64,000 nucleotides of DNA, taken from NCBI RefSeq assembly GCF_013167455.1, contig NZ_CP038328.1; one strand, 5' to 3'. A program made the translations under genes and the position numbers. This DNA comes from Escherichia coli O157:H7. Lineage in GTDB: Bacteria > Pseudomonadota > Gammaproteobacteria > Enterobacterales > Enterobacteriaceae. How positions within the stretch are numbered: the stretch's first letter is position 1; every line of letters starts with the position of its first letter. Shown here piece after piece: positions 22,401 to 30,655 of the stretch. Under the pieces are notes generated by a model. The model was not told where the DNA came from and ran no database searches. It saw only the letters and a program-made list of their open reading frames with translations.

Positions 22401-22486
22401 AAATTACACACGGGCAGATAAGCGAAAAATGCCATAATATCCGCACTGTTGCTCAATCAGAAAGGCTTTATATTTAAGGAGTGCCT

Positions 22487-23107
22487 GTGCTAGACCGCCA
22501 TCTTCATCCCCGGATTAAACCGTTGTTGCATCAGTGTGTGCGGGTTCTTGATAAACCGGGCATTACGCCAGATGGTTTAACATTAGTGGGATTTGCCATC
22601 GGTGTGCTGGCACTGCCTTTTCTGGCGCTGGGCTGGTATCTGGCGGCGCTTGTCGTCATTTTGTTGAACAGGCTGCTTGATGGTCTGGACGGTGCGCTGG
22701 CGCGGCGCAGAGGGCTTACCGACGCGGGCGGCTTTCTTGATATTTCTCTCGATTTTCTTTTTTACGCGCTGGTACCTTTTGGGTTTATCCTCGCCGCACC
22801 GCAGCAAAACGCCCTGGCAGGCGGCTGGCTGCTGTTTGCGTTTATCGGCACGGGTAGCAGTTTTCTCGCTTTTGCTGCGCTGGCGGCGAAATATCAGATT
22901 GATAATCCCGGTTATGCGCATAAATCGTTTTATTATCTGGGGGGATTAACCGAAGGCACAGAAACGATCTTACTGTTTGTGCTGGGATGTTTATTCCCTG
23001 CATGGTTTGCGTGGTTTGCGTGGATCTTCGGTGCGTTGTGCTGGATGACGACCTTTACGCGGGTGTGGAGTGGGTATCTGACGCTGAAGTCGCTCCAGCG
23101 TCAGTAA
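22487..23107 (+). CDS. ynjF: CDP-alcohol phosphatidyltransferase family membrane protein
   Basis: 206 codons from the GTG at 22487 (6 nt after AAGGAG); DG(x2)AR...G...D...D motif (LDGLDGALARRRGLTDAGGFLDISLD). Confidence 0.8.
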   Translation: MLDRHLHPRIKPLLHQCVRVLDKPGITPDGLTLVGFAIGVLALPFLALGWYLAALVVILLNRLLDGLDGALARRRGLTDAGGFLDISLDFLFYALVPFGFILAAPQQNALAGGWLLFAFIGTGSSFLAFAALAAKYQIDNPGYAHKSFYYLGGLTEGTETILLFVLGCLFPAWFAWFAWIFGALCWMTTFTRVWSGYLTLKSLQRQ

Positions 23108-23115
23108 TTGCAATG

Positions 23116-24438
23116 TTATTTGCTGCTGTCCGGGCCGCGTTCACCGGTTGCTACCGGATTTTTTGGATCGCTGCTCCATTCGTACCAGCCGCCGTCGTAA
23201 ACGGAGACGTTATTCCAGCCCATTGCTCGTGCGTACATAAAGGTTTCGGACGCGCGCCAGCCGGTGCCGCAGTAGAATGAAACTTGCTGATCTGGTTTGA
23301 TATTCCATGCTTTCCACATAGCGGTAATATCATCGGCGCTACGCATGGTGCCATCCGGATTATGGAAATCTTCCATATGCGTCGAGTCGCTACCAGCGTG
23401 TCCCCAACGTGCTCCGGCTATTTCACCTTTTGGTTTAATATAGCTGTAACCGCTGGTCGTACCGATAAATTCTGGCCACGAACGAATGCTCACCAGCGAT
23501 GCATCCTGGCGATGCAGCAGTCCACGGGCCTGTTCCATATCGAGCATCAACTGCGGTTGTGCCGGGATCTTCACGCCGAAATCCGGTTCCGCTTTCACTT
23601 TCGGTGGCGTACCGCGCTCAACGGGCAGACCCGCGTCGGACCAGGTTTGCCAGCCGCCATCCAGCAGGCGCACATCTTTCACGCCGGCATAAAGCATAAT
23701 CTGCGCCACACGCGCTGCAGCGTATACGTCACGCCCGTACAGAATGACCGTGGTGTCATGGCGAATGCCGTGTTTTGCCAGCATCGCTTTTAGTTGTTCA
23801 TCAGAAACTTTGTTCCACAGCGGTTCGCTTTCCACTTCGTTGGTATCGATGTAGTCAGCACCGGGAATATGGCTGATAAGGTAAAGCTTAGGAGCGCCCC
23901 TGGCCGCTTCAATGACTTTCCAGTCACCGGCAGGTTTCGCCGTAACCTCTTTACCTTGTTGCAGGTCGTGCAGCCATTGCGGATAAACCAGCTGCTCAAA
24001 GTGCGGCAGTTTTTGTAGACGGGAAGGTTCGCTTAGCGCGTCACTCAGAATGGAGATATGCGTAAAACCTGCTTTTTGCAGTCGCGTTTTGACGGCGTCG
24101 ACATCTTTGCCATTACCGTACAGCGCCACCGGGGCATCGGCTTTCAGGTTATGTTGCTTGATCCACGCGTTGAGCTGTTCGGTGCTCATTTTGTCAAGCC
24201 AGCTAGCAGAGAGGTTTAAGGCGGCAGGTTCATGACCAGAAGGGCCATTTAAGGTTTGTGGCCAGCCGTTATAAAACGCGCTGGAGCGAGTATCTATCGC
24301 TTTGCCATTTTGTTGTTGAAGCTGGTCAAGTGTAAGAGGCTTCGCCAGTTCAGCGGCCCACGAAGAAGCGCAAGCCAGCCCTAAAGCCATTGCCAGCGCG
24401 GTCATTTGAGAAACACGTTTCATCGAAAATCCCGACAT
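23116..24438 (-). CDS. ynjE: three-domain rhodanese (thiosulfate/mercaptopyruvate sulfurtransferase), periplasmic
   Basis: 440-aa ORF (435 aa from the second Met); signal peptide; active-site loop CGTGWRAS. Confidence 0.85.
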   Translation of the reverse strand: MSGFSMKRVSQMTALAMALGLACASSWAAELAKPLTLDQLQQQNGKAIDTRSSAFYNGWPQTLNGPSGHEPAALNLSASWLDKMSTEQLNAWIKQHNLKADAPVALYGNGKDVDAVKTRLQKAGFTHISILSDALSEPSRLQKLPHFEQLVYPQWLHDLQQGKEVTAKPAGDWKVIEAARGAPKLYLISHIPGADYIDTNEVESEPLWNKVSDEQLKAMLAKHGIRHDTTVILYGRDVYAAARVAQIMLYAGVKDVRLLDGGWQTWSDAGLPVERGTPPKVKAEPDFGVKIPAQPQLMLDMEQARGLLHRQDASLVSIRSWPEFIGTTSGYSYIKPKGEIAGARWGHAGSDSTHMEDFHNPDGTMRSADDITAMWKAWNIKPDQQVSFYCGTGWRASETFMYARAMGWNNVSVYDGGWYEWSSDPKNPVATGERGPDSSK

Positions 24439-24489: not shown

Positions 24490-25143
24490 TTATCGCAGTT
24501 TGTTGTAATTTTCTGACCACTGCGCCATATCCAGAACAGAACTATCAGCAGGAACATCCTGGAGATCGTGCGTTACCTGAACGACGGGGATCGCCAGTTC
24601 GCGAACTTCGCTGAACACCCACTGGCGAAAATTATCGCGCAGAGCCACATCAAGACGGCTGAATGGCTCATCCAGTAGCAACGCTTTTGGCTGAGCGAGA
24701 AGGGCGCGAAGCAGAGCAACGCGCGCTCGCTGACCGCCAGACAAAGTAGCAGGATCCTGATGGAAAGCTCCGTCAAGGCCTGAACGCTCAAGTGCATCAT
24801 TCACGGCATTACGTCGGGCATTCCCCTTAAGTGTCGCCGGTAGCGCCAGCAGTAAATTTTGCCCGACACTGAACTGGTCAAATAACAGTGCATCCTGAAA
24901 AAGAATGCCAATCTGACGCTGTGCGGTGGGTAGCATGTCAATCCGTTGCTCATTGAGCCATAGCTCACCTGTACAAGAAAACTGTCCGGCCAGTGCACCA
25001 ATCATCCATGAAAACAGAGTGGATTTTCCACAGCCAGACGGCCCCATTAACGTGACAATGTCACCTTTATCCACCGTAAAGTTAACGTTTGTCAGCAAGC
25101 AACTTTCTGGTAAACGTAGCGAAACATTTTTCACGCAGAGCAT
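24490..25143 (-). CDS. ynjD: ABC transporter ATP-binding protein
   Basis: 217 codons from MLCVKNVSLRL; Walker A GPSGCGKST, signature LSGGQRARV, Walker B LLLDE; start overlaps the ynjC stop. Confidence 0.85.
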   Translation of the reverse strand: MLCVKNVSLRLPESCLLTNVNFTVDKGDIVTLMGPSGCGKSTLFSWMIGALAGQFSCTGELWLNEQRIDMLPTAQRQIGILFQDALLFDQFSVGQNLLLALPATLKGNARRNAVNDALERSGLDGAFHQDPATLSGGQRARVALLRALLAQPKALLLDEPFSRLDVALRDNFRQWVFSEVRELAIPVVQVTHDLQDVPADSSVLDMAQWSENYNKLR

Positions 25144-26678
25144 TAGCGGAGTCCTTGTCTGACATAACCTACCCATTTTGCGACTAACGCGGTCAGGGCA
25201 AAAATAATAAGCGGTAATAGCAGTTGCCATAAAGCCAGGGCGGCGAGAATACCGTTGCTGCCGCCGCTGCTTAATGCCACCGCCTCAGTGGTGAGCGTCG
25301 GAAAACGCCCCGCGCCCAGCCACAGCGTCGGCATATACTGCGCAATACTGACTGAAAATCCCACCGCGAAGGCAATCAGCGTAGGGCGTAGCATAAGCGG
25401 ACATTTCACGTAAAAGAAGATTTTGGCCCGCGACCAGCCCAGTGTTTGTGCAATCAAAATTAACCGTGAATCAATGCGCTGCCAGGCGGGTTGCAGGATA
25501 AACAGCATCCACGGCATTACCCACAGCAGATGCCCCCAGACCACCGCCGTCCAGCTTCCATCCATGTTCAGCCATAGCGCCAGCGTGTACTGGCCCGCCA
25601 CCAGCGGCAGTGCCGGTAATAAAATCGGCAACCATAGCCACAACTGGCGACGCTGTGGCCCCCATTCCAGCCACAGCAGTAACAGGAGCAAAGCGATGAA
25701 TGTCGCCACCAGCCCCATTGTCAGGCTGTTGATGAGCGCTTCACTATTGATCGTCGACTGATCCGCGAGGATCGCCAGCAGAACCACACACAGCACACTG
25801 GTCAAGGGTAAAAAACTCGCCAGCGTAATGCCTGGCAATAAAGGCGTGGCAGGCTTACGAACGCCATCTACGCGGGGAATAGTACGCCGCCAGGTACACC
25901 ATAGCAGATAGCCCAGCAAAACGTAGGCGGCGAGTAACAACATCAGCAGCAGGCTGGCGAGTGCGCCTTTCGTTTGTTGATCGGCGTCGCCCTGAGTTAA
26001 CCACTGCCAGCTAATTACTGCCAGCGTCGGTGGATTACCTGGCCCAAGAATAATCGCCACATCTACGACCGACAGCGACCAGGCAACAATCGCCAGCATC
26101 GCCATTGCCAGCGCAGGCGCGACGGAGGGCAACAGCAGCCAGTTCAGGCATTGCCAGCGGCTGTAGCCCAGCGAATCCAGCACGATGACTTGCTGTAAAA
26201 GCCGTTTTTCACTCAATACCGCTGCTAAGATCCACAGCAGAAATGCGCTTTCTTTCACCGCCAGCGTGAAGCCCAGCCCAATACCCAATTTGTCCATTGG
26301 CGGAGTGAAATACGGGAAATAGTCATAAAGCAGCCCTCCGTCAGCAAAGAGCAGAAGGGCGCTGGTGGCAAAAGCCACATGGGGAATGGCGAGCAGCCAC
26401 GGCAGACGGGTGCACATACGCTGCCATTTCGGCCCAGGCCACAGCGCCACAATCACCAGTAGGGCAATCAACAACGCCCCGACCGCCGCGATGGTTGTCG
26501 ACACCAGCGTTGCCAGTAATGCCTGCGGTAACTGTGGATCGGCAAATAACGCCTGCCAGTGTGTCAACGACAAAGCAGGCGATATCAGCGTGAGAGCTGC
26601 CGGGATCAGCGGTGCATAAATCACCGCCACCATCGCCCACAGCAAAAAGATTAATGCGTACCGTAACGGTGTAGCCAT
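25143..26678 (-). CDS. ynjC: ABC transporter permease (fused two-domain)
   Basis: 511 codons from MATPLRYALIFLLW; about 12 hydrophobic spans. Confidence 0.85.
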   Translation of the reverse strand: MATPLRYALIFLLWAMVAVIYAPLIPAALTLISPALSLTHWQALFADPQLPQALLATLVSTTIAAVGALLIALLVIVALWPGPKWQRMCTRLPWLLAIPHVAFATSALLLFADGGLLYDYFPYFTPPMDKLGIGLGFTLAVKESAFLLWILAAVLSEKRLLQQVIVLDSLGYSRWQCLNWLLLPSVAPALAMAMLAIVAWSLSVVDVAIILGPGNPPTLAVISWQWLTQGDADQQTKGALASLLLMLLLAAYVLLGYLLWCTWRRTIPRVDGVRKPATPLLPGITLASFLPLTSVLCVVLLAILADQSTINSEALINSLTMGLVATFIALLLLLLWLEWGPQRRQLWLWLPILLPALPLVAGQYTLALWLNMDGSWTAVVWGHLLWVMPWMLFILQPAWQRIDSRLILIAQTLGWSRAKIFFYVKCPLMLRPTLIAFAVGFSVSIAQYMPTLWLGAGRFPTLTTEAVALSSGGSNGILAALALWQLLLPLIIFALTALVAKWVGYVRQGLR

Positions 26679-27817
26679 TCTTGTTCCAGCGCATTTACCC
26701 AACCTGCGTGCGGTTCAGCCAGTACCGGCGGCAGATCTTGCGGCATTCTTGATTGCAATGTTTCGCGCTGCCCATCAGGCAGTTTTTGCGGATCGAGAAC
26801 AGAAGGATCGCCCCAGACAGCGGGATCTGCTTTACGCAATTGCGCATCGGGTGAGAGCAAGAAATTGGCAACTACCTTCGCCGCAGCACTGGCATTCGCG
26901 TTGGCAGGAATGGTGACGAAATGCACGTTGCCAATCATCCCCTCGCGAAAGCCAAAACTGTAACTGCTTGCAGGCAAATCGCCGCTGGCGATTTTTTGCT
27001 GCGCATGCGCGGGGTTAAAGGTCAGCGACAGGCGAAATGTTCCGGCTTTCAGCAGAGCATCCATCCGCGCGGGCGAAGGCGGGAAATCCTTTCCTTCGCG
27101 CCACAAATACGGATGCAGCGCATCAAGATATTGCCACAAGGGAGCAGTGACACGGGCGAAAGTCGCATCGTTCGGCGCTTCATTTAATGCGGCGGGATCG
27201 GGCGTCAGCATAATCAGCAACTGTTCAAGAAACGCCGTGCCGGTAAAGTCCGGTGGGCGCGGATAGGTAACCGTGCCGGGATTGGCTTTAGCAAACTCCA
27301 GTAAGGCTTGCGGCGTTTGTGGTGGCTGTGGCGTAACATCGCGGCGGGCGATAAATGTCAGTTGTGCGCCCCCCCAGGGCGATTCAGCCCCTTCTGTAGG
27401 CACTGAAAAATCTTCCCGCACCGGCAGCTGTGTGTCGACATAGCGCCAGTTGGGCAGAGTCTCTGCCCAGTCGGTTTGCAGTAAATTGGCCTCTTTTAAG
27501 GTGCGGAAGTTTTCGCCGTTCACCCAGAGCAGATCCACCGAGCCGCCCGTTTTACGTCCGGCAGCAGCTTCGGTCTGAATGCGCTTCACCGCGTCTGCGG
27601 CATCCGCCAGACGAACAATCTTCAGGTTTATAGCGTAATGGGTTTTCATCTCGCCGCTAACCCAGTCGAGATAGCGGTTAATTGCGGTATCGCCGCCCCA
27701 GGCGTTAAACCAGACAGTTTGCCCTTTGGCCTCATTTTTAATTTCTTGCCAGTCACTGGCATGTGTTGCCAGAGAAAACAGCGATAACAATCCCAGCAAC
27801 CACCCACAATGGCGCAT
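26651..27817 (-). CDS. ynjB: ABC transporter periplasmic substrate-binding protein
   Basis: 388 codons with signal peptide MRHCGWLLGLLSLFSLATHA; overlaps the ynjC start by 28 bp. Confidence 0.8.
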   Translation of the reverse strand: MRHCGWLLGLLSLFSLATHASDWQEIKNEAKGQTVWFNAWGGDTAINRYLDWVSGEMKTHYAINLKIVRLADAADAVKRIQTEAAAGRKTGGSVDLLWVNGENFRTLKEANLLQTDWAETLPNWRYVDTQLPVREDFSVPTEGAESPWGGAQLTFIARRDVTPQPPQTPQALLEFAKANPGTVTYPRPPDFTGTAFLEQLLIMLTPDPAALNEAPNDATFARVTAPLWQYLDALHPYLWREGKDFPPSPARMDALLKAGTFRLSLTFNPAHAQQKIASGDLPASSYSFGFREGMIGNVHFVTIPANANASAAAKVVANFLLSPDAQLRKADPAVWGDPSVLDPQKLPDGQRETLQSRMPQDLPPVLAEPHAGWVNALEQEWLHRYGTH

Positions 27818-27826
27818 CATCTCTCC

Positions 27827-28375
27827 TTAAGAACGTTTTTCCGGAATACGGCACAGCCCCTGAGCGGGAATGTCCATGGCAGAATTAAAACGGGCTGACA
27901 GATTTTGCAGGCCGATCAATGCCGTCAGTTCGGTGAGCTCCTGAGCGTCAAAATGCGCAGCCAGTCGGGTACGCAGGGCATCATCGACCGTTGGCGGCGT
28001 TACGCTTGCGGCTTCGGCGTACTCCAGCGCCAGCCGTTCTTCATCGCTAAAGAGCGGGCTTTGCCGCCAGTCAGCCACTGCCAGCAGTTTATCGCTGCTG
28101 CCGGTGCGCTCGGCGACTTTCATACTGGTGATATCCACACAAAACTCACACAGGCACATTTGCGCAATGCGCGCGCTGACAAGCGATCGTACTACCGGAT
28201 CGAGCGGTGAGCGTTTGCGCTCCAGCCAGCCAACAAACATCGACACCAGATAAAAGATAAACGGGATCCGCCCCCACCAGCGAATGGGGCTTAGCACCTC
28301 GCCGTAATGGCGACGATGCAGCCACGCCTGCGGACGTAAAATGAAAGGAATTTTGCTAAGCGGCGGTAAACCCAT
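27827..28375 (-). CDS. ynjA: AhpD-like / carboxymuconolactone decarboxylase family protein
   Basis: 182-aa ORF with CxxC motif (MCLCEFCVD) typical of AhpD-like proteins. Confidence 0.8.
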   Translation of the reverse strand: MGLPPLSKIPFILRPQAWLHRRHYGEVLSPIRWWGRIPFIFYLVSMFVGWLERKRSPLDPVVRSLVSARIAQMCLCEFCVDITSMKVAERTGSSDKLLAVADWRQSPLFSDEERLALEYAEAASVTPPTVDDALRTRLAAHFDAQELTELTALIGLQNLSARFNSAMDIPAQGLCRIPEKRS

Positions 28376-29082
28376 CAGGCATTCCTCTTCTGGCGCTCAA
28401 GCCATATTTTCTTCGCCATAAAAATCACCACGGTCAGGGCAAACAGAATAAACAGTCCGGTGACAAACCAGAAGGTACCGCCTGTTAACATGCTGCCCGC
28501 CCAGGAATAAACAATAGTCGCCGGTAACTGACCAAGCCCGGTGGCGATAAAAAACGAGCGAAAACGTATTGAAGTCAAACCGGCAGCATAGCTGATTGGA
28601 TCGAAAGGGACAAAAGGCAATAACCGACAGACCAGGATGGTGTGTTTGCCGTAGCGAGTGAAAAAGCCGTCCATACTGTCAAGTACGGTTTTGCCGGTTA
28701 ATTTTTCCACCACTTCGCGGCCCATCACTCTGGCGATAAAAAAGCACAGTGCCGCGCCGGCCATCGAACTGGTCCACGACAGCGAGCCGCCCCAGAACGC
28801 GCCAAACAGCGACGCATTGGCAAAGGTGATCAAAAACGCAGGTAGCGGTGCAGCAATGGCCTGTAAAATCATCAACAAGAACGAGACAACTGCCGCCAGT
28901 GCGCCGTAAGACTGAATAAAGCGTTCTATACCCTGTTGGTCCACGGCGGCAAACGCCGCAACGCTGCGATTGATAAACTCATGGACGCCGGGAAGCAGCG
29001 CCCATGCCAGCAGCATAGCGAACAACAGGATGATGAGGGTTATACGGTAGTACCAGATTTTACGCGATTGCATCTTCATCAT
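28375..29082 (-). CDS. ydjZ: DedA-family inner-membrane protein
   Basis: 235-aa hydrophobic ORF; stop overlaps the ynjA start. Confidence 0.8.
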   Translation of the reverse strand: MMKMQSRKIWYYRITLIILLFAMLLAWALLPGVHEFINRSVAAFAAVDQQGIERFIQSYGALAAVVSFLLMILQAIAAPLPAFLITFANASLFGAFWGGSLSWTSSMAGAALCFFIARVMGREVVEKLTGKTVLDSMDGFFTRYGKHTILVCRLLPFVPFDPISYAAGLTSIRFRSFFIATGLGQLPATIVYSWAGSMLTGGTFWFVTGLFILFALTVVIFMAKKIWLERQKRNA

Positions 29083-29096
29083 CCTTTATCCTGGCT

Positions 29097-29774
29097 TTAT
29101 TCGGTGATTTTAAAGGTAACCGTTGCCAGCGTGTTATTCGCCGGGAGAACCGAGGCATTGCCTTTGAATTTAACTTCACCTCGTTTTTCAACCGCACCAT
29201 AAGTGTATGTTGCATTGCTGACGATGCCGACCGGGCAGCTATCCAGACACACCAGGCAACCCGTTTTCTTCTCTTCTGCTGCCGTTAAATTACCGCCAAA
29301 GCGCATGTCCAGTTTCTTGCCATTACTGTCAACAATCACTTCATCGAAGGAATACGTTTTTGCCGCCCCTTGCCAGTTGACCGAAATATCCAGTTTGCTG
29401 CCTGTGACATGAGTCGTTTCTTTATTATCCATCGTCATGTTTTCGCCCGGTGTACCACCTGCCTCTTTCAGGGCTTCATAAAATGCTTTCGGGGTCGCAT
29501 AACCCATAAACAGCGATTTATGTCCGTTGGAGCCATCTTTAAACACAATACCGTGACGAGTGTCGTCGGTGAGGAAACGACCATTAATTTGCACCAGCAT
29601 GGTTACCGTATGGTTATTGGCATCGACGCGCAGCGGTTGGCTGTTCGAAAGTCCGTCGTATTCCACTTTTGCCGCCGCATTCTCTTTTTGATCGCAGCCG
29701 CTAAGCCCAGCAACAGCCAGTAAGCAGAGTGCAGTCAGTCCTTTTTTCCATGACACTGAATAATGTTGCAACAT
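29097..29774 (-). CDS. ydjY: lipoprotein with C-terminal CxxCxxxCP cysteine motif
   Basis: 225 codons from MLQHYSVSWKKGLTALCLLAVAGLSGC (lipobox LSGC); C-terminal GCLVCLDSCP. Confidence 0.75.
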   Translation of the reverse strand: MLQHYSVSWKKGLTALCLLAVAGLSGCDQKENAAAKVEYDGLSNSQPLRVDANNHTVTMLVQINGRFLTDDTRHGIVFKDGSNGHKSLFMGYATPKAFYEALKEAGGTPGENMTMDNKETTHVTGSKLDISVNWQGAAKTYSFDEVIVDSNGKKLDMRFGGNLTAAEEKKTGCLVCLDSCPVGIVSNATYTYGAVEKRGEVKFKGNASVLPANNTLATVTFKITE

Positions 29775-29778
29775 CGTT

Positions 29779-30489
29779 CTATCCTTCATTTTTTGGGTGA
29801 GTAAGTGGGTTGCGGCGCGAAGCAGACAGATCCACATGTTTGTGTCGGGCGTAGAGTTTTGCGAGCTGGACGAGAATAAACAGCGCCAGGCCCGCCAGAC
29901 AGAGTTGTAAAATAAAGCGCAGCGTAATGCCTTCATTGGCGAGATCGCTTGCCATCACGGTATAAATAACAATACCGGGCAGGGTCGTGAGTGCCGAAAT
30001 AAGGGTATAAGGCCAGAAGGCGATTGTGGTTAATCCGTAAGCGTAATTTTGAATATTGTAAGGAAACAACGGGATTAAGCGGGTCAGAATAAGAAAATCA
30101 ATACCGTTACGCGCAATGCCTTTTTCAATGGCCTGGAAGGTATGGCTATGGCCAACGTATTTCAGCAGTAAATCACGTCCCATCCAGCGCGCCAGCAGGA
30201 ATGAGCACGAGGAGGCCAGCGTGGCGGCAATTAATGAGAGTAGTGTCCCTAAGAACGGGCCAAAAACTATTCCTCCCGCGATCACCAATATGCTTCCTGG
30301 TAACAGAAAGAGGGTGGCAATGATGAATAACAGAATATAGAGGCTATAACCGAACAATCCGCTCTGGCGAATGAGTGTCTGTAAGTGGGGTAAATCGGTG
30401 AGCAGATCGAATAAACCGAAAGCGTGGATAGCGTAAATGGCCAGCGCAAAAATAAGACAGGCAAAAAGAAATTTACGCTCAGCGTTCAT
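29779..30489 (-). CDS. ydjX: DedA/TVP38-family inner-membrane protein
   Basis: 236 codons from MNAERKFLFACLIFALAIY; first gene of the minus-strand cluster. Confidence 0.8.
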   Translation of the reverse strand: MNAERKFLFACLIFALAIYAIHAFGLFDLLTDLPHLQTLIRQSGLFGYSLYILLFIIATLFLLPGSILVIAGGIVFGPFLGTLLSLIAATLASSCSFLLARWMGRDLLLKYVGHSHTFQAIEKGIARNGIDFLILTRLIPLFPYNIQNYAYGLTTIAFWPYTLISALTTLPGIVIYTVMASDLANEGITLRFILQLCLAGLALFILVQLAKLYARHKHVDLSASRRNPLTHPKNEG

Positions 30490-30655
30490 CGTGGAGTTTC
30501 CTATATCAAACTTGATAATAGAGAAGTGGTCAGACAACTAAAAACGCAGTGACGGTATAACAAAGGACGGCAGGCAACAAATCATTACTGACAGTTTGTT
30601 GATTTTTCTCAAGGTTAATTCTCCTGACCCAGTTTGAGCCAGGAGAGCTGCTAAA

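Follow-up and report, generated by a model that had tools for sequence, protein, structure and literature searches.

What is the tight cluster of cysteines in the Escherichia coli lipoprotein YdjY for, and does it mark YdjY as a ferredoxin, as one of its database labels has it? We took up this question at ydjY in a 64-kb stretch of E. coli O157:H7 DNA (contig NZ_CP038328.1), hereafter the window. An earlier reading of the letters alone, here called the original prediction, had noticed a lipobox and the string GCLVCLDSCP near the C-terminus, and had taken the latter for a truncated ferredoxin-type or metal-binding motif in a periplasm-facing protein. Since the gene was already known, as were models of its family and the label that likens it to a ferredoxin, the bare observation is not new. 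Literature searches returned no functional study of ydjY, and where the operon is mentioned at all, it is in lists, as part of the FNR regulon, for a BaeR response of ynjABCD or for a silver-sensitive ydjZ deletion. The 225-residue product translated from 29097-29774 on the minus strand is 100% identical to the RefSeq ‘lipoprotein YdjY’ of E. coli O157:H7. It matches NCBIfam model NF040466 at 145.1 bits (cut-off 50) over residues 49-223, and its relatives carry the precomputed Pfam family PF27149. The features of the gene are as follows.

29097..29774, minus strand: ydjY, an exported lipoprotein of the YdjY domain family (from the translation, RefSeq, NF040466, PF27149 in relatives and an AlphaFold2 model).
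29694..29774, minus strand: Sec-type lipoprotein signal peptide, residues 1-27, as read from the sequence, with lipobox LSGC27 at 29694-29705 and Asp28 at the +2 position.
29553..29555, minus strand: His74, in a T-R-H motif, His in 62 of 66 relatives and a probable fourth member of the cysteine site.
29232..29258, minus strand: the Cys triad C173-x2-C176-x3-C180-P181, defined by conservation in 66 relatives and lying within the signature FGGN...TGCxxCxxSC..GIxSN.

We found that the cysteine cluster, which begins 53 residues before the C-terminus, near which the original prediction had placed it, is a real and strongly constrained site by the measure of sequence conservation. In an alignment of 66 diverse YdjY relatives (alignment A2; 26-54% identity to the query, 26% mean column identity), cysteine is kept at position 173 in 61 sequences and at positions 176 and 180 in 64 each, and the residues around it are held as firmly (S179 in 62/66, G172 in 65/66, and F159, G161 and N162 in 61-65 of 66). 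Every residue of the family signature, together with His74, is present in the YdjY of the window and at least 90% conserved. C173, C176, C180, S179, G172 and H74 are all in this class. A search of the 64-kb window in all six frames gives a single C..C...CP, and its chance expectation in a protein of this size is about 1.4e-5.

The way in which the site is lost is also informative. His74 is probably a fourth member of the triad site: three of the four relatives that lack it (P0173, P0206 and P0217) also lack one or more triad cysteines, a joint loss with a hypergeometric p of about 0.002 from the 66-relative counts. In P0173 and P0217 nearly the whole Cys/His set is gone while the other signatures of the fold (FGGN, SN and P211) are retained, and this pattern sits better with a functional site that has His74 among its members than with one critical to the fold. 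Of the triad positions, C173 is replaced most freely, with Thr, Ser, Glu, Asp and Tyr all seen there (Asp and Glu in P0206 and P0202), which leaves C176-x3-C180 as the core. As far as conservation can tell, the site is constrained in the manner of an active or binding site.

This site does not fit an iron-sulfur (Fe-S) ferredoxin. The hidden Markov models of the ferredoxin clan score YdjY well below threshold (Fer4_3, 15 bits, E 0.048, against a cut-off of 27; Fer4_21, 13.9 bits against 35), the Fer4 gathering threshold was not reached, and Protein Data Bank (PDB) sequence searches with YdjY and with the 66-sequence family profile gave only insignificant ferredoxin matches (E 0.26-0.65). In place of the four-cysteine motif CxxCxxCxxxCP, YdjY reads K170-T-G-C173-L-V-C176-L-D-S-C180-P, with Lys170 at the first cysteine position, and no fourth cysteine is conserved. 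The proline that completes the resemblance, P181, is retained in just 36/66. Periplasmic Fe-S proteins of E. coli are exported already folded through the twin-arginine (Tat) pathway, and the signal peptide of YdjY is of the Sec type, with no twin arginine (RR); almost all of its relatives, many of them from Gram-positives, likewise carry ordinary Sec or lipoprotein signals. Structure prediction, which the original prediction had itself proposed as a check, gave a confident AlphaFold2 model (predicted local distance difference test, pLDDT, 92.7, and about 98 around the Cys triad) that has no ferredoxin neighbour and lacks the (beta-alpha-beta)2 fold. On the scores, the missing cysteine, the variable proline, the export route and the fold together, we reject the reading as a truncated ferredoxin. 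The likeness to the 4Fe-4S ferredoxin domain (Fer4 clan) comes down to the local C-x2-C-x3-C-P string, and the label ‘4Fe-4S ferredoxin-type domain’ attached to ydjY is probably misleading.

Nor did YdjY match the other families considered here. The AlphaFold2 model has almost no PDB neighbour at all, and as modelled the fold is one without a solved relative. The archaeal DUF371 protein (PDB 7y7n) shares 9% identity with YdjY, and Foldseek does not support the pairing (E 3.9); it is a cytoplasmic protein, itself uncharacterised, whereas YdjY is exported. We found no HMA match in Pfam and no match to that fold, no Pfam or NCBIfam match in YdjY itself to the rhodanese, TusA, DsrE or Se_S_carrier families, and no match to a lipid-binding fold in structure searches.

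The sequence supports the claim that YdjY is an exported lipoprotein. Its signal peptide, MLQHYSVSWKKGLTALCLLAVAGLSGC, has a KK n-region and a hydrophobic core followed by the lipobox L24-S-G-C27 and D28, in agreement with the pattern [LVI][ASTVI][GAS]C of bacterial lipoproteins. Lipoboxes occur in 42/66 relatives and plain signal peptides in most of the others, so that export signals of one kind or the other are found in homologues from both Gram-negatives and Firmicutes anaerobes. A proteome study of O157:H7 lists YdjY as a lipoprotein, with ‘LSGC81D’ in the numbering of an old 279-aa open reading frame (ORF; window 29097-29936) that begins 54 residues too early (PMC3210124). By the Lol-avoidance rule, the Asp at +2 predicts retention of YdjY in the inner membrane; among close enterobacterial relatives the residue after the lipidated cysteine is Asp in P0020, P0032 and P0042 and Glu in P0034.

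The most constant genetic partners of ydjY encode membrane proteins. In the window, ydjY lies between two genes for membrane proteins of the VTT/DedA superfamily, which includes relatives of human TMEM41B and VMP1. The ydjX stop is 4 nt upstream of the ydjY start, and ydjZ follows 14 nt after ydjY.

29779..30489, minus strand: ydjX, a VTT/DedA (TVP38/TMEM64, COG0398) membrane protein (Pfam VTT_dom, 6e-26; RefSeq).
28375..29082, minus strand: ydjZ, a second VTT/DedA (TVP38/TMEM64) membrane protein (Pfam VTT_dom, 1e-23) and the most constant partner of ydjY.

To place this arrangement in a wider context, we searched and clustered the ORFs of 80 genomic loci from 44 genus-level lineages and of 9 metagenomic loci. 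These loci were drawn with a closer alignment (A1) and represent the close subfamily, above about 46% identity; for the distant members P0134, P0203 and P0164, the contigs are not long enough to show the gene context. A YdjZ-like or YdjX-like VTT gene adjoins ydjY in about 83 of the 89 loci, with most of the exceptions at contig ends. YdjZ-like genes (E 1e-59 to 1e-83 against E. coli YdjZ) flank the ydjY homologue in 57/80 loci, and YdjX-like genes adjoin it in 23/44 lineages. One protein, P0201, is a natural VTT-YdjY fusion. The partnership of YdjY with VTT proteins thus looks obligate. YdjZ orthologues are exceptionally well conserved, and two cysteines of the VTT domain are kept among them (C113 in 59/59 and C152 in 56/59). 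In Desulfobacterota, the VTT partner is fused to an N-terminal Fer4_8/Fer4_17/CCG module that is heterodisulfide-reductase-like. Pyridine-nucleotide-disulfide (mercuric-reductase-like) oxidoreductases have been described as the commonest fusion partners of COG0398 proteins, whose function was given as unknown (bioRxiv 10.1101/2023.01.04.522824).

Two side observations concern these membrane partners. The Desulfobacterota fusions, of about 570-680 aa, join the Fer4_8/Fer4_17/CCG module to a YdjX-like VTT domain beside ydjY (L005 9127-10977, with the same type in L020, L026, L028, L054, L055, L076, L081, L088 and L089), and their best NCBIfam match, under cut-off, is ‘dicluster-binding protein near Sec’ (NF045663). 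In Campylobacterota, Desulfobacterota and Facklamia, the gene directly downstream of ydjY encodes a membrane protein of about 130-155 aa (L001 8649-9029; L005 8666-9130; L079 7505-7903; L090 922-1365). By eye it has about four hydrophobic stretches; it carries a ‘W-L-E-M-R’ motif and matches nothing in Pfam or NCBIfam. Many Firmicutes have it as an N-terminal fusion to a YdjZ-like protein, about 396 aa in total (L022 8742-9926, N-terminal third), and it is absent from the E. coli operon.

Beyond the VTT genes, the neighbours of ydjY often include genes linked to sulfur, selenium or arsenic. In the window, the genes that follow ydjZ are these.

27827..28375, minus strand: ynjA, an AhpD/CMD-like protein with a C-L-C-E-F-C motif (Pfam CMD, 5e-9).
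24490..27817, minus strand: ynjB-ynjC-ynjD, an ATP-binding cassette (ABC) importer (binding protein, permease and ATPase) of the same operon.
23116..24423, minus strand: ynjE, a periplasmic three-domain rhodanese (RefSeq).
22469..23107, plus strand: ynjF, a CDP-alcohol phosphatidyltransferase convergent with ynjE (Pfam CDP-OH_P_transf; RefSeq).

Rhodaneses are neighbours of ydjY homologues in 14/44 lineages, including E. coli with ynjE, and ynjE-like genes are seen in Catonella, Campylobacter and Peptostreptococcaceae. The association extends to single proteins: rhodanese-YdjY fusions occur in both domain orders (P0151, P0153 and P0182). YnjB-like binding proteins or ABC systems are found in 8/44 lineages, including Clostridium, Catonella and Bacillus benzoevorans, and YnjF-like genes in 6/44, five of them Firmicutes. 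Of the same 44 lineages, 8 have ArsS-like genes near ydjY, 9 have TIGR04282/TIGR04283, 7 YedF, 5 SelD and 4 Se_S_carrier, and arsenite-methyltransferase-like genes belong to the set formed with ArsS, TIGR04282 and TIGR04283 (8-9 of 44). Matches exceeded the cut-offs of the curated models for TIGR04282 (138 bits; 134), TIGR04283 (229; 182), ArsS (337; 300), SelD (352; 125) and YedF (120; 110). These links to selenium and arsenic genes recur across phyla and are not universal.

The cluster of Facklamia brings most of these elements together. It starts with a TIGR04282 transferase-kinase fusion, a TIGR04283 glycosyltransferase, a PrdB-like ORF and an ArsS radical S-adenosylmethionine enzyme. It continues with CcdA-like, ResA-like, YdjZ-like and YdjX-like genes, a nucleoside hydrolase, a small membrane protein, YdjY and a rhodanese, and beyond the rhodanese lie an arsenite-methyltransferase-like gene on the opposite strand and then SelD, YedF, SelB and SelA. 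Its CcdA/DsbD-like membrane protein and ResA-like thioredoxin form a pair that would export reducing power. Desulfobacterota have selD, yedF (218 bits, cut-off 110) and Se_S_carrier genes no more than a few kb away from ydjY, and in one locus (L082) the order is selD-yedF-ydjY, with the selenium genes directly upstream. Some ORFs in these clusters are seemingly cut at in-frame stops that are possible selenocysteine codons: a PrdB-like ORF ending ...LLSPG (L079 1693-2160), a shortened arsenite-methyltransferase-like ORF (L079 10067-10669, minus strand) and a SelD without its N-terminus (L082 2517-3380).

Starting from the observed export signals, site conservation, gene pairing and fusions, we tentatively read YdjY as a thiol-based extracytoplasmic carrier of sulfur, selenium or arsenic species that works with YdjX and YdjZ, a reading we hold at somewhat less than even confidence. 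What we infer is the species bound, the way in which it travels and any physical complex that YdjY forms. Tethered to the inner membrane and facing the periplasm, YdjY would be the extracytoplasmic subunit of a conserved YdjX/YdjZ (COG0398 VTT/DedA) module. Its working site would be a cluster of reduced thiols in which C173 joins the core pair C176 and C180 as third ligand, probably along with His74, and the triad would covalently bind or coordinate a soft chalcogen or metalloid, for which sulfane sulfur, selenium as perselenide or selenotrisulfide, and As(III) are candidates. Exported Firmicutes proteins generally avoid cysteine unless it is functional, and it is this avoidance, together with the reducing CcdA/ResA pair of Facklamia, that leads us to picture the thiols as reduced and working. 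A periplasmic rhodanese (in E. coli, YnjE) may deliver the species to YdjY, which would hand it to, or receive it from, the membrane proteins, with the two invariant membrane-domain cysteines of YdjZ as possible stations. Thiol-redox partners on the cytoplasmic side may be YnjA in E. coli and, in Desulfobacterota, the Fe-S/CCG heterodisulfide-reductase-like domains fused to VTT.

By analogy, such a system would resemble known relays in logic, and YdjY is a member of none of their families. Like MerP/MerT with MerA, it has a small exported cysteine protein beside a cysteine-bearing inner-membrane protein (YdjZ), a cytoplasmic disulfide-reductase-type domain in relatives and a proposed thiol-to-thiol hand-off across the membrane; unlike MerP, YdjY has neither the HMA fold nor GMTCxxC, the partner is VTT/DedA rather than MerT, and no mer genes are nearby. 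In the rhodanese sulfur and selenium relays (periplasmic Sud; cytoplasmic Rhd-TusA-DsrE2 and YedE/YedF-SelD), the likeness lies in a rhodanese fused or adjacent to YdjY, in YedF, Se_S_carrier and SelD as neighbours in several lineages, and in a conserved cysteine site that could accept the transferred atom. The differences are that YdjY resembles TusA, DsrE and rhodanese neither in fold nor by Pfam match, carries three cysteines rather than one, and is extracytoplasmic and lipid-anchored. The tri-cysteine As(III) sites of ArsR, ArsD and ArsM share with YdjY three closely spaced cysteines, and ArsM- and ArsS-type genes recur nearby; in YdjY, the spacing and fold differ and the location is periplasmic.

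Several observations weigh against a carrier of this kind. COG0398 proteins resemble eukaryotic scramblases, and the current view is that they are phospholipid scramblases rather than ion or metalloid carriers (bioRxiv 10.1101/2023.01.04.522824). Lipid genes (YnjF, LPG_synthase_TM and an OlsE-like fusion) are also among the neighbours of ydjY. SelD and YedF adjoin in 5-7/44 lineages and ArsS-type genes in 8-9/44, so that no single element is singled out. The six Escherichia and Citrobacter loci examined have no ArsS, ArsM, TIGR04282 or TIGR04283 genes, and P0244, on a distant YdjY branch, has no VTT neighbour. A selenocysteine/cysteine pair at one position would mark a redox-active cysteine. 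Scanning metagenome DNA for TGA in place of the C173 codon inside the motif turned up 81 pattern matches, none of them YdjY-like, with positions 176 and 180 and diverged motifs outside the scan. A CxxC pair with a further cysteine and a histidine is, moreover, the textbook's commonest structural zinc pattern, and Cys3His a classic zinc set.

This last point introduces a serious rival, in which a structural mononuclear metal site, most likely Zn(Cys3His), is built from His74 and the three cysteines to stabilise the fold, and the real function of YdjY lies elsewhere, for example in ligand or lipid binding for YdjX and YdjZ. We consider it unlikely, though still to be reckoned with. The triad region is modelled as rigid, with its pLDDT of about 98, and the Asp and Glu that replace C173 in P0206 and P0202 are acceptable zinc ligands; C173 is also swapped, however, for Thr, Ser and Tyr. 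The near-complete loss of the set from P0173 and P0217, which keep the other marks of the fold, suggests that the site is dispensable for folding, and a purely structural site would leave the thiol-redox, rhodanese, selenium and arsenic context unexplained. If the site were only structural zinc, ydjY would encode an ordinary accessory lipoprotein.

Somewhat less probable still is a role in lipid handling, in which VTT proteins scramble or flip an unusual phospholipid and YdjY binds or modifies its headgroup in the outer leaflet, with the triad recognising an arsenic- or selenium-bearing headgroup. The lipid would come from YnjF and, elsewhere, from the ArsS/TIGR04282/TIGR04283/kinase/nucleoside-hydrolase set. 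Besides the likeness of COG0398 to eukaryotic scramblases (bioRxiv 10.1101/2023.01.04.522824), this explanation can draw on the YnjF-like genes in 6/44 lineages, on LPG_synthase_TM flippase-like genes near ydjY in 5/44 and on P0237, in which an OlsE-like fatty-acid/ornithine-lipid hydroxylase is fused to a YdjY domain. A DUF2064 nucleotidyltransferase-kinase fusion, a GT2 enzyme and a nucleoside hydrolase occur in the same clusters. Against it stand the absence of headgroup-building genes from the Escherichia and Citrobacter loci examined, the lack of any lipid-binding fold match for YdjY, and the rhodanese fusions, which point to direct transfer of sulfur or selenium onto protein thiols. The recurrence of YnjF-like genes nevertheless suggests that the system may include a lipid product. 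As an observation on these genes, YnjF-like transferases lie within ydjY/VTT/ynjBCD-like clusters of several Firmicutes (L038, L043, L053, L059 and L068).

We give little credence to an ordinary structural disulfide with one spare thiol and no cofactor, which is the outcome that the original prediction itself named as counting against it. DsbA oxidises exported cysteines in the E. coli periplasm, as textbooks have it, and both the CxxC and the CxxxC pair are able to close into disulfides. The odd number of cysteines speaks against it, however, as do the near-invariance of the triad in Firmicutes anaerobes, the shared loss of cysteines and His74, and the reducing CcdA/ResA pair of the Facklamia cluster. 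Least credible, and very improbable in our view, is a periplasmic electron carrier with an Fe-S cluster held by the three cysteines and His or another ligand: the weak Fer4_3 resemblance (E 0.048), alignments to FwdG and NuoI around CxxCxxxCP, the name ‘ferredoxin’ in some sources and anaerobic expression (PMC3688515) speak for it, whereas the uniformly sub-threshold Fer4 scores, the missing canonical cysteine, the unconserved Pro181, the absence of a ferredoxin fold, a Sec lipoprotein signal without twin arginine and export of the family in Gram-positives too speak against it.

The YdjY family is small (313 clusters at 50% identity among 1.8 billion representatives) and ranges over Enterobacterales, many Firmicutes, Campylobacterota, Desulfobacterota and Spirochaetia, with E. 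coli YdjY 48-58% identical to most of the aligned Firmicutes and Desulfobacterota members. Further architectures include DUF5719 repeats after YdjY (P0161), an N-terminal domain of about 200 aa before it (P0243 and P0253) and tandem YdjY-YdjY (P0122 and P0132). Within E. coli, ydjY was found in 5352 of 5426 complete genomes. The O157:H7 allele reaches at least 99% DNA identity in only 379 of these 5352, most being at 95-99%, and the commonest E. coli protein cluster is 97% identical to the O157:H7 form, so that this is a rather divergent allele considering the core-gene status of ydjY.

How, then, is the operon deployed in E. coli? According to chromatin immunoprecipitation and expression data, ydjXYZ-ynjABCD has a class 1 FNR site at -60.5 and is directly FNR-activated (PMC3688515). 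The window contains a half-palindrome consistent with this published site.

30599..30612, no strand assigned: FNR-like box TTGATTTTTCTCAA, in the xthA-ydjX intergenic region upstream of ydjX, with 1 mismatch to TTGAT-N4-ATCAA.

Matches of the TTGAT-N4-ATCAA type number 50 across the window against 38 expected, so the consensus alone is not significant. YnjA combines the CxxC of AhpD with an extra cysteine in its C-L-C-E-F-C motif. Among NCBIfam models it comes closest to that of a YciW-related (seleno)protein, with 101 bits against a far higher cut-off of 310, and its PDB relatives are generic AhpD/CMD proteins only; among the loci examined, ynjA was seen beside ydjY only in Enterobacterales. 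Sequence search found no PDB relative of YnjB. YnjE is periplasmic, has no thiosulfate:glutathione activity, and it is not clear which substrate it uses physiologically (PMC10215317). A ydjZ deletion was a silver-sensitive match in a screen of the Keio collection (PMC6071238), which is a minor pointer. The original prediction had fitted a redox or metal role to the surrounding operon; of this, a thiol and redox flavour stands, in the AhpD-like YnjA, the rhodanese YnjE and activation by FNR.

A more specific version of the carrier reading, which we regard as doubtful, would have ydjXYZ-ynjABCD with ynjE and ynjF dedicated to the anaerobically induced capture of extracellular trace selenium (or organo-selenium or organo-arsenic species) and its passage through the inner membrane. 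YnjE would load the YdjY triad, from which the selenium would pass to the membrane cysteines of YdjZ (and YdjX), then to cytoplasmic thiol-redox partners and ultimately to SelD. The pairing of YdjY with COG0398 proteins in a rhodanese, selenium and arsenic neighbourhood appears in none of the papers that our literature searches returned.

Among the remaining uncharacterised genes of E. coli, ydjY is tied tightly by these comparative data to the COG0398 branch of the DedA/VTT proteins. It thereby bears on two questions: what the bacterial COG0398 DedA proteins transport, and how E. coli acquires selenium anaerobically. If the selenium route were true, it would give COG0398 DedA/VTT proteins their first non-lipid function and would reveal the specific selenium uptake system that has long been missing for E. 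coli.

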